Notes under the pieces: model-generated | Database searches by the model: none | What the model was told of the DNA's origin: nothing | The model's input: only the letters and a program-made list of their open reading frames with translations | Position numbers and translations under genes: made by a program | Shown: positions 6,594 through 39,168 of the stretch, one piece after another | How the letters are laid out: every line of letters begins with the position of its first letter | How positions within the stretch are numbered: position 1 is the first letter of the stretch | Virus record (IMG/VR): IMGVR_UViG_3300048574_000421 | Length of the DNA stretch: 64,000 nucleotides | Source: a virus | Taxonomy: Duplodnaviria; Heunggongvirae; Uroviricota; Caudoviricetes | Direction: 5' to 3' (one strand)

Positions 6594-6609
6594 ATAAAAA
6601 GTGTAGAAA
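6594..6609 (-). promoter_or_regulatory. Candidate late promoter TTTCTA-N4-TTTTAT (copy TTTCTAcactTTTTAT)
   Basis: Exact motif match, intergenic, 15 nt before the ATG at 6578. No Shine-Dalgarno in the spacer. Confidence 0.5.
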
Positions 6610-6631: not shown

Positions 6632-6682
6632 ACGCTCTCCCTCGACTACTAAAGGTCTATGAGCATCTTGGAGCATGTAGTC
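6632..6682 (-). ncRNA. Structured RNA motif copy A (pseudoknot plus kink-turn), family unassigned
   Basis: GACUAC-AUGCUCCAAG-AUGCUC-AUA-GA-CCUU-UA-GUAGUC-GAGG-GA-GAGCGU. Helices covary with copy B at 30749-30801. Confidence 0.7.
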
Positions 6683-6706: not shown

Positions 6707-6722
6707 ATAAAAACATTAGAAA
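6707..6722 (-). promoter_or_regulatory. Candidate late promoter TTTCTAatgtTTTTAT(TA)
   Basis: Directly after the stop at 6723. An 18-nt stretch is 17/18 identical to the copy upstream of the sheath gene (34361-34378). Confidence 0.6.
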
Positions 6723-9700
6723 TCATCCAAAGAATAACTTTAGAGCATTTCCAAGTCCCGGTGTAGCATAAACAAACATAGCTCCAGCTGTATAAGCTGA
6801 AGGGTCACTTTCAGGACCATTTGTAGCATTTGCAATACTTGTCTTCAAATATTCATTTCCACCCTTACCGTACGGGATACGTAAAAAATAGAGGTCGGGT
6901 AAAGCAAAATCTTCTGTTAAAACTAGCAAAAACGATTTTATTGTTAAAAGTAAGTTCTTCAAAGATTCAATCTTTTTTTGCAACAAATCTATAAAATTTG
7001 TTGTCGCTGTGCTCATTTTTTCAGTTCCTGCAAGTAATGAATCAATCATCTGTTGCATTATTTTCATAATTTCTTCTATTTTCGGAAACATTCCTAAAGC
7101 TGATAATCTTATTGATGACCAGTCAGGCCATACTTTTTGCGTATAACGAGGGAATGTTTTTGAATATCCATCACAACGTTGTTGCATCATACCATTTTGA
7201 CAAGATATTGGATCCCAAAATTTTTTAAACTCTATGTTCTCTGGTTCAAAACCACCTTGGCCAAATCCATCTTGTCTTAAAAAAATGCTTCTTTGTGATT
7301 TTTCTGTATTTGTACATTCACTTCCATTGTTATAATAACAATTTGCATTATCATAACCAGTACACAAAGTCGAACCTGCATCACATTTTGTCAAATCAAA
7401 AAAGTATCTGCTATATTCAGACCTAACACATTTAAAAAATTGTTCTTTAGAAAAATCTGAAAAATAATCATAATCTACTGTCAAACTTGTGCCTGGTGGC
7501 ATATTTACTTTTACTCTACCATCTTTATCGTTAAGAACAGTGACACTTTGTACTTGTGTTCCATTTTTAAAAACTTTAACACTTGTTGAGTCTATGGGCT
7601 TCTTAGAAGTAATAAATGTTTGATTTTTATCTAATACAACAGGTTCATTAAGTTTTGAAACAACTTTTAAGTCTTTCTTAAACTTATATGTAACAATAAG
7701 GACATCATCTTTTTTGAAATAATAACGCGACTTTATGTAAATTTTATTTACTGTTCCTTCTTTTAATTTAGTGTCAGCACCTTTTTTAGTTTTACTTTGG
7801 TAATCAACACGATAACTAGAAGAACTAGCTGTAAATTCTTTTTTATTTCGCAGTACTTTTATTCTAACTGTTCCTGCAATAGGTGTGTTTGCTATAACTA
7901 AAAAATCTGGAACTTCAGCACCAATAGAGAATTTTTCAGGTACGTTATCTTGATCAAACCCGCACCTAAAGTTTCTACATCTTGCAAGACCACCTTTAAC
8001 TTCAAAAGATGCATTAACTGGCATTGCTGAAACTTCACCACTTAATGAACCTATTCCTAATATTTTTGTGTCACTCACTGATTTGGGATTTTCTTCGTGT
8101 TGTACTAATTTACCAATTTCAGAATCATATTCTGAAACAACTTTTTTCTGAAAATCTGTAGACAATAAAGAACCTGTACTTATTTTTGCGTTTGGAGTTG
8201 AATAACCTGAAGCAACTACATAATAATATGTTTTATTGTTTTCAACATTTTTATCTTCATAAACAAACCTTAATGGATCACCATTTAATGCGACTTTAGA
8301 AATTTCTTTGACAGCATAACCAAACTCTTTTAAAGCGGAATCAGCGTTTTTCTCGTTAACACCCATGATTTTTGCTATCTCTTTAATCACATTTGTGACA
8401 CCAATTAACTTATAACTTCTTAACTTGTTTCCATTCTCGTCATGATACTCGTATTTTTTCCCAAAATCTTCATAATATACTGGATCACCACCTTGTGTTT
8501 CACTCCTGAAAATAAAATATTCTTTAGGTAATGAAGAAGAGCTTGGCGTAAATGTAACTCTCACTGTTTTATTTCCTGCAAAACAAGAGACATTTGAGGG
8601 TGGTTCAAATGCAACTTTAAAAGGACTTCTAAACAATTTCATTAACTTTTGAATTGATCTGACAAATGTACCCACGTCATCTGGACCTACTGTTCCAGAG
8701 TCAAACATCATTACATAGCCACCTACCATAGCTGTATCAGAAAGTTGAGGTCTATTACCATCACCCGGATCATCAAACGATTGTGTAAGTTTTGAAATAA
8801 ATGAAGAATATCCGCCTTTTACACTATCAAACCAACTTGGATGATTCAAGTCAAAAATATTGTAATTTTCTTTAGGCATATCTCTAAAATATTGAGGATA
8901 AGTAAGTGGGTTAATCCCAAGTTGTCCAGGCATAATATAGATAGCATATAAACCACTTGCAGCTAAATCTTTTATAAAATCGTCAATGGTCTTTTTAATT
9001 TGTTCTAGCAAAATTTTCATTACATCAGAAAGATCAACTATAAACATCTTTATGACATCTAGAACTTTCGTTGTAAGTTCTAACGCTGAAACTAAAGGAT
9101 CAATAACTTCAGTTAAAGTAGTCGCAAGTGTATAAATTTCTTTAGGTATCCATTGAGCTGTATTTATTTTTTTCCATTCTAATACTGCTGGAATAACAGA
9201 TCCTTGCAAAGAAACTTTTAAAGCTGTTTCTGTTACATCGTTAGAATTTATCTCTAAAGTTCCACCAAGTGTTTCTAAATCTGTAGGTTTAAAAGAAACA
9301 GACAAGATTGTAGAACCATTAGTATCAACATGACCTGACGTTGGTGTTACGTCAAATGCAGTTAAAGCAAGATTCACGCTTGGTACTTGTATATTTAAAA
9401 TCTCATCTCTAGTACTTCTATAAATTTTTGTTGTAAAATCTAAAATCTGATCACCTGTATTACCTACAGTCAAAGTTAAAGTCTTTGAACCTCCAACTGG
9501 TACACCACTAAAAACTAAAGATGTTGGATTTACAGTAATTTTTGGTGAAGTTACAGCTTCTGCTTTCACTTCGATTTCTACGTTTTTATTTTCTGGGTCG
9601 TTAGTTGTTAATCCTATAGAACTTATAACTTCACCTGCTGTTTCTGACATAAAAGTAATATTAATTGTTGAAGAAGTACCTGTGTTTAATAAAAGACTCT

Positions 9701-11414
9701 CTGGTGAAACTGTAAATAATGTTGAATTAGATGCAACTGAAACAGACAGTTGCACGCGACCTGTATTTTTTATTGTTATTTCTTTTGAAGACTGATGATT
9801 TGTTACAACTTTTCCAAAATCAACAACTGAAGGCGTGTCTTCAACAAACCCTTTACTATTAACAAACTTAATTGTTGGATTATCACCATATCCTGTTACA
9901 GATAAAGAAAGATTGGGTGTATCTGGATCATTGCTTAAAAAATGTACAATACCATTCTTTGAACCAACTGAAGTCGCAACAAAAGTAATTTGAATACTTT
10001 TTGTTACGTTTGGCTCAATTTCAAGCGAAGTTTGTTCTAACTGAAAATTTGTATTAGTACACGTGATGCTTGATATTACTAAATTTCCTAAACCAGAATT
10101 TGTTATTGATGCACTTAAAGATACTGGTACATTTAAAGCAACACTTCCAAAATCAAGCGAATTGGGAGACATTGAAATATCAGGATGTACACCAGAACCT
10201 TGCATAACAACAGAAATACTAGGTTTATCAAGATCATTTGAAGTTACTGTAAAAGTTCCTTCATAAAAACTTAAGCTTGTAGGTCTAAACTTTACATCAA
10301 CAATTTTAGATGATGTCACAATAAGAGGAAATGTCTCTTGTATAGAAAAAACTGAATTTGAGATAACAATATTAGAAACAATTAACGGCGCTGTTGATGT
10401 GTTTTGAATCAGTATTTGTTTTATCGATTCGGTGTTTGTCGTAACATTTGAAAAGTCTAAAACAAGAGGACTTACAACTATCAAGGGACTTACACCAGAA
10501 CCATGCAAATCTATTGTCTTTTGTGGTGTGTCAGAATCATTACTTATAAGTGTTATTTTTGCAAAATTTTCATTTTTTGAAGCTGGTGAAAAAGTAACAT
10601 TAACATCAGTAAAACTTCCTGGTACAATACTTGCATTTGATGGAGCAACTGAAAATGCAACATTATTTGTGCTTATGTTTGAAACATTAAGATTGATAAT
10701 CCCTGTATTATTAATTTTGAAATTTTTTACAAGTGATGCACCTACATTCACATTACCAAAATCAATCATCTCTGTTGATGTAGAAATATTAGGAGCTGCC
10801 AAACCAAAACCCGATAAATCTATTATTACTGTAGATAAAATAACATCGTTACACTGTAATGTCAAACTTCCTGTTTTATTACCTGAAGATTCTGACGTAA
10901 ATGTGACAGGTATTTGTAAAGATTCACTTTTTTTTATTATAAAAGGAGTATTGAACACCCCAGAAAAAACAGGATTAGAAAAAACAACAGAAGATATAAT
11001 TAAGTTAACATCATCAGGACTAATATTTGAAACAAGAATGTTTACAGTTTTCTGTGTATTTACTGCAACATTCCCAAAACTTATCGATGTTTTGTCAACA
11101 TAAATACCTGCAGAAACAACTTCGATTTTCATAGGAATTGTCAAACTGTTTACTGAACTTGTAATTAACAAATCGCCTGAAAAACTTTCACTCTCTCCCA
11201 CAATTGTGTTTGTAAAAAATGTTACATCTAAAAATACGCTTTCATTTTGATACAAATCATAGCTTATTTTTGACAAACCAAATAAAGCATTAGAAGAACT
11301 AAAACTGACAATCACGTGCTCTAATCCAGTATTTGTAATAATTACAGTATCTTGTTTAGAATCTTTTACAGAAATCAAACCTAAATCGACTAAAGTTTTA
11401 TTTGCTACAATCAT
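6723..11414 (-). CDS. Large virion protein with about 7 tandem ASH/choice-of-anchor-D-like Ig domains, duplicated helical domain, FN3-like and Cys-rich segments
   Basis: Seven repeats of (I/L/V)xFxxVxVxxxxxxxxxIxNxG...DP in aa 1-~740. Two similar amphipathic helical blocks ending LYAIYIMPG and LYFLRIPYG. Located in the baseplate module. Confidence 0.8.
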   Translation of the reverse strand: MIVANKTLVDLGLISVKDSKQDTVIITNTGLEHVIVSFSSSNALFGLSKISYDLYQNESVFLDVTFFTNTIVGESESFSGDLLITSSVNSLTIPMKIEVVSAGIYVDKTSISFGNVAVNTQKTVNILVSNISPDDVNLIISSVVFSNPVFSGVFNTPFIIKKSESLQIPVTFTSESSGNKTGSLTLQCNDVILSTVIIDLSGFGLAAPNISTSTEMIDFGNVNVGASLVKNFKINNTGIINLNVSNISTNNVAFSVAPSNASIVPGSFTDVNVTFSPASKNENFAKITLISNDSDTPQKTIDLHGSGVSPLIVVSPLVLDFSNVTTNTESIKQILIQNTSTAPLIVSNIVISNSVFSIQETFPLIVTSSKIVDVKFRPTSLSFYEGTFTVTSNDLDKPSISVVMQGSGVHPDISMSPNSLDFGSVALNVPVSLSASITNSGLGNLVISSITCTNTNFQLEQTSLEIEPNVTKSIQITFVATSVGSKNGIVHFLSNDPDTPNLSLSVTGYGDNPTIKFVNSKGFVEDTPSVVDFGKVVTNHQSSKEITIKNTGRVQLSVSVASNSTLFTVSPESLLLNTGTSSTINITFMSETAGEVISSIGLTTNDPENKNVEIEVKAEAVTSPKITVNPTSLVFSGVPVGGSKTLTLTVGNTGDQILDFTTKIYRSTRDEILNIQVPSVNLALTAFDVTPTSGHVDTNGSTILSVSFKPTDLETLGGTLEINSNDVTETALKVSLQGSVIPAVLEWKKINTAQWIPKEIYTLATTLTEVIDPLVSALELTTKVLDVIKMFIVDLSDVMKILLEQIKKTIDDFIKDLAASGLYAIYIMPGQLGINPLTYPQYFRDMPKENYNIFDLNHPSWFDSVKGGYSSFISKLTQSFDDPGDGNRPQLSDTAMVGGYVMMFDSGTVGPDDVGTFVRSIQKLMKLFRSPFKVAFEPPSNVSCFAGNKTVRVTFTPSSSSLPKEYFIFRSETQGGDPVYYEDFGKKYEYHDENGNKLRSYKLIGVTNVIKEIAKIMGVNEKNADSALKEFGYAVKEISKVALNGDPLRFVYEDKNVENNKTYYYVVASGYSTPNAKISTGSLLSTDFQKKVVSEYDSEIGKLVQHEENPKSVSDTKILGIGSLSGEVSAMPVNASFEVKGGLARCRNFRCGFDQDNVPEKFSIGAEVPDFLVIANTPIAGTVRIKVLRNKKEFTASSSSYRVDYQSKTKKGADTKLKEGTVNKIYIKSRYYFKKDDVLIVTYKFKKDLKVVSKLNEPVVLDKNQTFITSKKPIDSTSVKVFKNGTQVQSVTVLNDKDGRVKVNMPPGTSLTVDYDYFSDFSKEQFFKCVRSEYSRYFFDLTKCDAGSTLCTGYDNANCYYNNGSECTNTEKSQRSIFLRQDGFGQGGFEPENIEFKKFWDPISCQNGMMQQRCDGYSKTFPRYTQKVWPDWSSIRLSALGMFPKIEEIMKIMQQMIDSLLAGTEKMSTATTNFIDLLQKKIESLKNLLLTIKSFLLVLTEDFALPDLYFLRIPYGKGGNEYLKTSIANATNGPESDPSAYTAGAMFVYATPGLGNALKLFFG

Positions 11415-30748: not shown

Positions 30749-30801
30749 ACACTCTCCTCTGAACTGCAACAGAGTCAATGAGCATCTAGAAGAAAGCAGT
30801 T
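30749..30801 (-). ncRNA. Structured RNA motif copy B (pseudoknot plus kink-turn), family unassigned
   Basis: AACUGC-UUUCUUCUAG-AUGCUC-AUU-GA-CUCUG-UU-GCAGUU-CAGAG-GA-GAGUGU; compensatory changes relative to copy A. Confidence 0.7.
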
Positions 30802-30807
30802 TGAAGG

Positions 30808-30830
30808 AGGGAGCGATTGATTCGCTCCCT
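30808..30830 (-). terminator. GC-rich hairpin after the tube gene with weak U-tract (leaky terminator or stabilising stem)
   Basis: AGGGAGCGA/TCGCTCCCT 9-bp stem 11 nt after the tube stop, followed by CCTTC rather than a U run. Confidence 0.55.
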
Positions 30831-31459: not shown

Positions 31460-31520
31460 ACTTTTATACTCCTTGGATTAAATTTTCTACTATTTCTTAA
31501 CAAATAAACACTTTATTAAA

Positions 31521-31548
31521 TTGGGCACCTAACAAATCAGATGCCCAA
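31521..31548 (-). terminator. Stem-loop between sheath and tube genes
   Basis: UUGGGCAUCUGA-UUUG-UUAGGUGCCCAA, 12-bp stem with G-U pairs on the minus strand, followed by UUU. Confidence 0.6.
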
Positions 31549-31557
31549 CTTAAAGTT

Positions 31558-34362: not shown

Positions 34363-34378
34363 ATAAAAGCATTAGAAA
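34363..34378 (-). promoter_or_regulatory. Candidate late promoter TTTCTAatgcTTTTAT(TA) upstream of the sheath gene
   Basis: Motif match, immediately downstream of a terminator hairpin. Confidence 0.6.
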
Positions 34379-39152: not shown

Positions 39153-39168
39153 ATAAAAGGAGTAGAAA
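39153..39168 (-). promoter_or_regulatory. Candidate late promoter TTTCTActccTTTTAT upstream of the tail fibre gene
   Basis: Motif match just after the stop of the 409-aa gene. Confidence 0.55.

Follow-up and report, generated by a model that had tools for sequence, protein, structure and literature searches.

Results

The locus and the two copies of the element

The window analysed here (the whole stretch of 64,000 nt) is part of a 211-kb IMG/VR virus record (IMGVR_UViG_3300048574_000421; 32.7% G+C), which encodes tail sheath, tube-like and baseplate-J genes and belongs to a clade of huge contractile-tailed phages. It carries, at 6632-6682 (copy A) and 30749-30801 (copy B), two copies of a small RNA element built of a kink-turn (k-turn) and a pseudoknot, both of them intergenic and on the minus strand, which is the sense strand of the flanking genes. 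Copy B is located 3′ of a 205-aa tube-like gene and 5′ of a gene of ~470 aa (type-B site), and copy A is located 3′ of the gene of a 1563-aa Ig-like-repeat protein and 5′ of a gene of ~170 aa (type-A site). The 13 minus-strand genes from 30712 to 6723 (24 kb) have overlapping or abutting stops and starts with no gap of 25 nt or more, and the minus-strand genes from 6578 to 1177 (at least four) are likewise packed without such a gap. Both packed runs are very long, translationally coupled tail-gene strings, and the two copies sit in the gaps that head them, the only intergenic gaps there; the gap-free string behind copy B is ~24 kb long, and that behind copy A, which reaches the window edge, measures at least 5.4 kb. 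The placement in phage morphogenesis operons that a sequence-only reading of the window had proposed is thus borne out, the copies lying in tail-gene strings, and the sequences of the two elements, with their one common minus-strand fold, are exactly as that reading described them.

The element is ~55 nt long and consists of a 6-bp closing stem (C helix), a 3-nt bulge, tandem G.A/A.G pairs that form the k-turn, and a 4-5-bp stem (NC helix), the loop of which pairs, in copies A and B, with a hexamer ~10 nt upstream. In copy A (covariance model R1, 65 bits, E 1e-10), the 5′ pseudoknot strand GACUAC (6677-6682) has its partner GUAGUC at 6644-6649 and is followed by a 10-nt linker, AUGCUCCAAG (6667-6676, from the sequence read and alignment A5). 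The C-helix 5′ strand AUGCUC (6661-6666) then leads into the bulge AUA (6658-6660) and G1b A2b (6656-6657), the NC helix CCUU (6652-6655) / GAGG (6640-6643) encloses, within 6640-6655, the 8-nt loop UAGUAGUC (6644-6651) that ends in GUAGUC, and G2n A1n (6638-6639) with the C-helix 3′ strand GAGCGU (6632-6637) complete the 3′ side (6632-6639). Copy B (70 bits with R1, E 1e-11) repeats this order on the same strand, with the 5′ pseudoknot strand AACUGC (30796-30801; partner GCAGUU at 30762-30767), the 10-nt linker UUUCUUCUAG (30786-30795) and a k-turn hairpin at 30749-30785. The latter is composed of AUGCUC (30780-30785), AUU (30777-30779), GA (30775-30776), CUCUG (30770-30774), the loop UUGCAGUU (30762-30769), CAGAG (30757-30761), GA (30755-30756) and GAGUGU (30749-30754).

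A family of 31 copies

Since two copies alone cannot exclude chance, relatives were sought. A third copy was found at the syntenic intergenic site of another contig, the neighbouring protein of which shares only 45% identity; the closing stem of this copy is wholly changed but paired (AUUGUUC/GAACAAU), the k-turn and the pseudoknot are retained, and the 71-kb fragment that holds it carries four copies. Using a pattern made from the invariant parts together with model R1, we detected three copies in a 192-kb genome, two in a 424-kb genome and one or two in smaller fragments, and ~20 more copies adjoin homologues of the tube-like gene in metagenome contigs. Altogether, 31 distinct copies (29 beyond A and B) are present in related huge-phage contigs, with 1-4 copies per genome (exactly two in the 211-kb record according to the covariance model), at two syntenic sites plus extra sites. 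Copy A has orthologues at the same site in four related phages, more than 20 related contigs have an orthologue of copy B behind their tube-like gene, and the extra copies of other genomes lie ahead of a tail-fibre-like gene and small unknown genes. The covariance-model search for homologues envisaged from the sequence alone has yielded further copies with covariation in related phage contigs.

Tube-gene relatives of at most 46% identity had no element with either the covariance model or a descriptor scan, and five complete or near-complete genomes of distant huge phages (2.1 Mb) gave zero covariance-model matches, which doubles as a specificity control for the model. Neither region had a blastn match among INPHARED phages, and no relative of the 473-aa protein adjoining copy B was found in viral contigs. 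No close relative was found among GTDB genomes, which gives no clue to the host. Note that the exact closing-stem pattern retrieved chance matches only from IMG/VR, in contrast to the pattern from the invariant parts, which retrieved true relatives.

A cmscan of the whole window against Rfam 15 at gathering thresholds gave no match, nor did 16 further loci, and at E values up to 10 both elements had only noise matches to unrelated eukaryotic Rfam families. This negative result covers SAM-I, c-di-GMP-II, drum, HOLDH, RAGATH-18, Actinomyces-1 and the ribozyme classes, so that the Rfam comparison, named k-turn motifs included, came out as a novel element would require, with no family match. No description of the element was found in the literature, and it may be present, unnamed, among 10,006 candidate phage RNAs (PMC10690425). 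We therefore class it as a new RNA family built of known modules (a k-turn and an H-type pseudoknot) and as a clean candidate for a new Rfam family; the combination of these modules with a 5′ strand/loop pairing was not found catalogued.

Covariation supports the fold

Alignment A5 comprises the 31 distinct copies, and the structure was scored over three helices with 17 pairs. Paired cells amount to 97.2%, compared with 83.5% in column shuffles (none of 500 reached the observed value), and sliding the partners by 1-3 columns leaves only 33-49% paired. Changes on both sides occur in 12 of the 17 pairs (5/6 in the pseudoknot, 4/6 in the C helix and 3/5 in the NC helix). For the pseudoknot helix (A5 columns 5-10 and 46-51), 93.7% of cells are paired; this count of covariation is conservative, since in three rows of the MAFFT alignment the pseudoknot is shifted by one column. 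Indeed, all 29 parsed copies have 5-8 contiguous pseudoknot pairs and L149 and L152 show the same pairing, with variants that include AACUGC/GCAGUU, GACUAC/GUAGUC, AACUAC/GUAGUU, AACUGU/ACAGUU, AACUAU/AUAGUU, AUUACCG/CGGUAAU, AUUACCA/UGGUAAU and GCCAC/GUGGC. A hairpin loop thus pairs with a strand outside the hairpin through compensatory changes, as defines an H-type pseudoknot, and the pairing of the 5′ hexamer with the loop that had been noticed in two copies covaries across all 31.

About 24 G.U cells of the alignment become A.C mismatches on the other strand, which agrees with the original remark that the G-U pairs fit the minus strand only, and plus-strand folds of copies A and B contain no comparable hairpin. 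Single-sequence folding is unremarkable (z-scores of -0.6 and 0.05), and the support for the fold rests on comparative evidence, not on thermodynamics. The minimum-free-energy fold of copy B instead pairs the linker with the purine-rich 3′ strand, a pairing without covariation support; cognate linker/strand pairs are no better than non-cognate ones (-7.07 vs -6.77 kcal/mol, p = 0.14), so that a switch between two folds is neither supported nor excluded. At the level of the alignment, these results demonstrate the fold of the element and its conservation, three helices being kept by compensatory changes in the relatives, as expected for the functional structured RNA that had been suggested for the minus strand.

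Kink-turn anatomy and predicted folding

The consensus k-turn loop recognised in the two window copies is present across the family. A 3-nt bulge (AUU, AUA or, once, AAU) followed by GA is found in 31/31 copies, and the opposite strand has GA in 29 of them and AA in the other two, which gives A.A at 2b.2n. The pairs -1b:-1n (C:G) and -2b:-2n (U:A) are conserved in 31/31 copies. The element accordingly has what defines a k-turn, namely a bulge with tandem G.A/A.G, a Watson-Crick C helix and an NC helix after the G.A pairs. The outer four pairs of the C helix covary and its two bulge-adjacent pairs are the invariant U:A and C:G, while three pairs of the NC helix covary. Invariant positions on the bulged strand are U(-2b), C(-1b), A(L1), G1b, A2b and C3b, and those on the other strand are G3n, A1n, G(-1n) and A(-2n), with 2n being G in 29 copies and A in two. 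The invariant bases are thus confined to U-C-A...G-A-C and G-(G/A)-A-G-A, that is, to the k-turn consensus plus two flanking pairs.

The 3b:3n position is an invariant Watson-Crick C:G pair. It was reported that k-turns with a Watson-Crick 3b:3n pair fold poorly or not at all in metal ions, which overrides the rules for 3b = C and 3n = G, and that L7Ae-type proteins fold nearly all k-turns, including those with a Watson-Crick 3b:3n (PMC8191799). From the invariant C:G and these published rules, we predict that the kink needs either a protein or the pseudoknot. As for the pseudoknot, the partner of the last 5-8 nt of the loop is a strand located 9-15 nt before the hairpin, and the 3′ strand of the pseudoknot abuts that of the NC helix with 0-1 nt between them, so that stacking of the two helices is possible. 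The pseudoknot helix is crossed by two or three nucleotides of the loop, and the pyrimidine-rich linker of 9-15 nt (consensus ...CUUC(W)AG) connects its far end with the base of the C helix. Given a k-turn included angle of ~50 degrees (PMC8191799), this geometry suggests that the k-turn would fold the closing stem back toward the pseudoknot and that the short linker would close the circuit.

Hairpins and promoter-like motifs around the copies

A 9-bp G+C-rich hairpin without a U-tract (30808-30830, minus strand, -16 kcal/mol) occupies the space from the stop of the tube-like gene to copy B; a terminator scan did not call it as a terminator. A hairpin lies 4-20 nt upstream of the type-B copies (mostly ~-13 to -21 kcal/mol) in all relatives but L263, and its structure, not its sequence, is conserved at more than 20 related loci (e.g., L142, L150, L151 and L244-L261). 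Type-A copies are preceded, 20-27 nt upstream, by a promoter-like motif. In the window, a position weight matrix (PWM) scan placed this motif (TTTCTAATGTTTTTAT, 6707-6722, minus strand) 24 nt upstream of copy A, and a second one (TTTCTACACTTTTTAT, 6594-6609, minus strand) between copy A and the start codon (6578) of the 171-aa gene. The arrangement with a motif upstream of the element recurs in three related phages and in a fourth, G002, and a second motif, between element and gene, is present at the type-A site of four genomes. The distance from the element to the start codon is variable (~30 to 94 nt).

Both sites are instances of a recurrent motif, TTTCTAnnnTTTTTAT, found on the minus strand at 6707-6722, 6594-6609, 34363-34378 and 39153-39168 and at ~20 more sites in the 211-kb record. 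It lies on the gene strand in 9/9 exact matches and 23/28 PWM matches, nearly all of them intergenic and just upstream of open reading frames (ORFs), and, on these sequence grounds, is probably a promoter used by the phage. From 34378, upstream of the sheath gene, to 6722, no promoter-like motif was found save one weak match inside an ORF, and the next one lies ~20 kb beyond copy A. Scans for sigma-70 promoters and intrinsic terminators gave no excess over shuffles.

Several observations concern the neighbourhood itself. The 171-aa gene behind the motif at 6594-6609 is without a Shine-Dalgarno sequence, and its leader would be ~8 nt long. The 1563-aa protein (6723-11414, minus strand), encoded between tail and baseplate genes, contains at least six Ig-like domains of the HYDIN/ASH/Cep192 type (PF22544, E 6e-57); the genes downstream of the copies had mostly no matches in PHROGs and Pfam. 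A second hairpin lies behind the sheath gene, at ~31520-31550 of the window, and the hairpin after the tube gene does carry a U-run in more distant relatives. In L163-L186, whose tube gene is ~40% identical, the post-tube gap of 170-230 nt holds a terminator hairpin and then A/T-rich ‘aaataagat’ repeats, which may be a different leader element at the place of the k-turn RNA. Moreover, in two distant relatives of G+C ~62% (L231:1396 and L232:1396), a long hairpin made of an outer stem of 12 bp and an inner one of 10 bp has a k-turn-like internal loop (3-nt bulge plus GA opposite GA) just ahead of the tube gene homologue; it may be due to chance or may represent a separate structured RNA.

Discussion

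A candidate docking site at the head of tail-gene strings

Our results describe a compact and very well supported RNA fold, which can be synthesised and tested at once, at the head of the long tail-gene strings of huge phages. These phages are known almost solely from metagenomes. The element would be transcribed within late (tail-module) transcripts as a cis-encoded structured RNA. Since the k-turn is its most conserved part and is predicted to need a partner, a platform recognised by a protein is suggested, in which the protein would bind the k-turn face and the pseudoknot would hold that face in position. To judge from its position, the element may act on the fate of the downstream transcript and not on the adjoining ribosome-binding site. 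Our leading interpretation, which we advance tentatively, is that long tail-gene strings are headed by a site at which an elongation or anti-polarity factor loads, in the manner of nut, put and the LoaP hairpin; the factor would load onto RNA polymerase where a promoter-less, translationally coupled string begins. That the phages encode a new processive elongation or anti-polarity system of their own, in which a k-turn/pseudoknot pad in the nascent late RNA brings a NusG paralogue or another factor to the host RNA polymerase, or acts on that enzyme directly like put, is a possibility of which we are rather unsure. If true, such a system would license the transcription of tail-gene strings of up to ~24 kb. 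The phage's own NusG paralogue is the candidate partner; NusG-like genes (PF02357) are present in the related G002, G003 and G005, and a leader RNA hairpin has been reported to be needed, in very long operons, for a NusG paralogue to act (PMC12691694). A factor-loading site would provide the first handle on late transcription control in these phages, as well as a new natural RNA-protein pair.

Several observations weigh against this interpretation. Protein binding is the best-fitting part of the sequence-only reading, but no partner protein was identified, and five phage records contain no member of the L7Ae family (PF01248). Of five related huge phages that are without the element, three likewise have NusG-like genes, so that the co-occurrence is not specific. 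Copy B comes after, and not before, the only obvious hairpin, no intergenic terminators were found within the gene strings and none downstream above background, and a motif-free stretch of ~25 kb (64799 to 39168) has no copy. Finally, the flanks of the k-turn may be invariant owing to intramolecular contacts of the RNA and not to a bound protein.

Alternative roles in the tail-gene transcripts

Nearly as likely as a loading site is a role of the element as a boundary between mRNA segments and a 5′ stabiliser. Here, the hairpin without a U-tract would shield the abundant sheath-tube mRNA from 3′ exonucleases, and the k-turn/pseudoknot, a compact barrier heading the downstream segment, would guard this segment from 5′-end-dependent decay (by RNase J- or RNase E-type enzymes) once cleavage or initiation has produced its 5′ end. 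Every copy indeed lies directly behind a transcript boundary, either a hairpin (almost all type-B copies) or a promoter-like motif (type A), the upstream hairpins are without the U-tract of intrinsic terminators, the pseudoknot occupies the 5′-most part of the element, and a stabiliser could tolerate a variable distance to the start codon. However, at the promoter-preceded sites we infer a single-stranded leader of 13-17 nt ahead of the pseudoknot, and decay protection does not account for conservation being highest at the k-turn bases and their flanks. We know of no 5′ stabiliser built on a k-turn. A decay barrier of this type would be a new kind of bacterial mRNA stabiliser.

A translational operator, in which a phage structural or regulatory protein bound to the k-turn represses or activates the first cistron and hence the coupled string, appears unlikely. 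The copies do occupy first-gene leaders of long coupled strings, the k-turn is predicted to be protein-dependent, and the ribosome-binding site at type-B loci is ~20-30 nt downstream. The spacing to the start codon nevertheless varies from ~30 to 94 nt, and at the type-A sites of four genomes a promoter-like motif separates element and gene, so that transcripts starting there would not carry the element; this variable distance and the intervening motif together argue against an operator at the ribosome-binding site. In addition, no pairing of the element with the ribosome-binding site covaries, and the pairing of linker and purine strand (p = 0.14) does not provide one.

We consider it similarly improbable that the element is a stand-alone or processed small RNA acting in trans, e.g., as a decoy for a host k-turn-binding protein or as a scaffold of an RNA-guided protein. 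Copy A lies between two promoter-like motifs in four genomes, as such an RNA would, but no terminator follows the element, the type-B copies have no promoter motif of their own, and there is no Rfam match to RAGATH-18 or another family. The 3′ flanks are an A+T-rich leader running into the next ribosome-binding site and are implausible as guides, and a TnpB-like gene (PF07282) exceeds the Pfam cut-off only in G003, the 97%-complete G002 having none above it. With such a gene in a single genome, the guide-RNA scaffold is an unlikely reading and was dropped. The ORF concerned, of 435 aa, lies in the 424-kb relative (G003:C1:207598-207750, L271) and has a zinc ribbon of the TnpB/Cas12f type (PF07282, 41.6 bits); the 192-kb relative has no equivalent above the cut-off.

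The sequence-only reading had also considered catalytic and riboswitch-like RNAs, and these ideas found no support, as the element is without a conserved junction, pocket or expression platform and its invariant bases are those of the k-turn and two flanking pairs. A new small self-cleaving ribozyme, which would cut at its own 5′ edge and split the sheath-tube mRNA from the downstream transcript, is very improbable. A processing site could well lie where the element does, between the 3′ hairpin and the next gene, and pistol or twister ribozymes are of similar size. Known small ribozymes, however, have many invariant unpaired nucleotides, and the element has none outside the k-turn; its strand order also differs from that of HDV-like, pistol and hatchet ribozymes, and no Rfam ribozyme matched at E values up to 10. 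As for a riboswitch-like ligand sensor, a compact pseudoknot fold with a k-turn is known from SAM-I and c-di-GMP-II, but we regard such a role as extremely unlikely. The element shows neither the conserved pocket or junction that would mark it as a member of such a class nor a conserved terminator or platform sequestering the ribosome-binding site downstream, its copies precede unrelated structural genes, Rfam gave no match, and the pattern of conservation already disfavours a sensor.

Chance similarity or a DNA-level repeat (promoter, protein-binding site or mobile element) has nothing in its favour beyond the original two-copy observation and is practically refuted by the compensatory changes in three helices over 31 copies, together with G.U pairs that suit one strand only, the RNA-specific motif of tandem G.A with a 3-nt bulge, flanks that are not conserved and the absence of model matches in 2.1 Mb of related phage DNA.

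Comparison with known systems

The loop complementarity of the element could in principle form between molecules, as in the pRNA of phage phi29. That pRNA is ~120 nt or longer, is a stand-alone transcript and has two complementary loops that cannot pair intramolecularly. In contrast, the element lies within the leaders of tail-gene mRNAs and its intramolecular pairing is sterically plausible; indeed, the 9-15-nt linker and the k-turn would allow loop and 5′ strand to pair in a single molecule, no feature demands an intermolecular pairing, and a pRNA-like ring finds no support.

The closest structural parallels are the SAM-I (S-box) and c-di-GMP-II riboswitches, in which, as proposed here, a k-turn bends a hairpin so that its loop pairs with a distant single strand. 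In these riboswitches, the loop pairs with a downstream junction or tail within a multi-helix ligand pocket. Unlike them, the element pairs its loop with a 5′ strand, i.e., in the opposite polarity, and is only ~55 nt long, without a junction, pocket, expression platform or cmscan match. Drum, HOLDH, RAGATH-18 and Actinomyces-1 are short intergenic RNAs of bacteria and phages recognised chiefly by their k-turn, with A:G or C:C at 3b:3n, for which folding in ions is expected (uncertain for HOLDH) (PMC8191799). The element differs from them by its C:G at 3b:3n, and their models gave no match at E values up to 10.

With regard to the k-turn itself, the element resembles the U4 snRNA 5′ stem-loop and the box C/D RNAs (bound by 15.5K/Snu13/L7Ae), which have a standard k-turn with an A/U-rich 3-nt bulge. 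The U4 k-turn has a Watson-Crick 3b:3n pair, like that of the element. K-turns of this type form the class that needs protein to fold (PMC8191799). In contrast to U4 and box C/D, the element is located in the mRNA of a bacterial phage, has an added pseudoknot, and no gene of the L7Ae family is found in the five phage records.

Finally, the lambda nut site (boxB), the put sites of HK022 and the UNCG hairpin of LoaP (dfn/mln) belong to the leader RNAs of processive antitermination, which act in cis on the transcribing polymerase (PMC12691694). They consist of simple hairpins or paired stem-loops, have neither k-turn nor pseudoknot and share no similarity of sequence or structure with the element, downstream of which no terminator to override was found, so that a functional link is suggested by analogy only. 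What the element has in common with them is its character as a small covarying structure, present in few copies per genome and heading very long operons.

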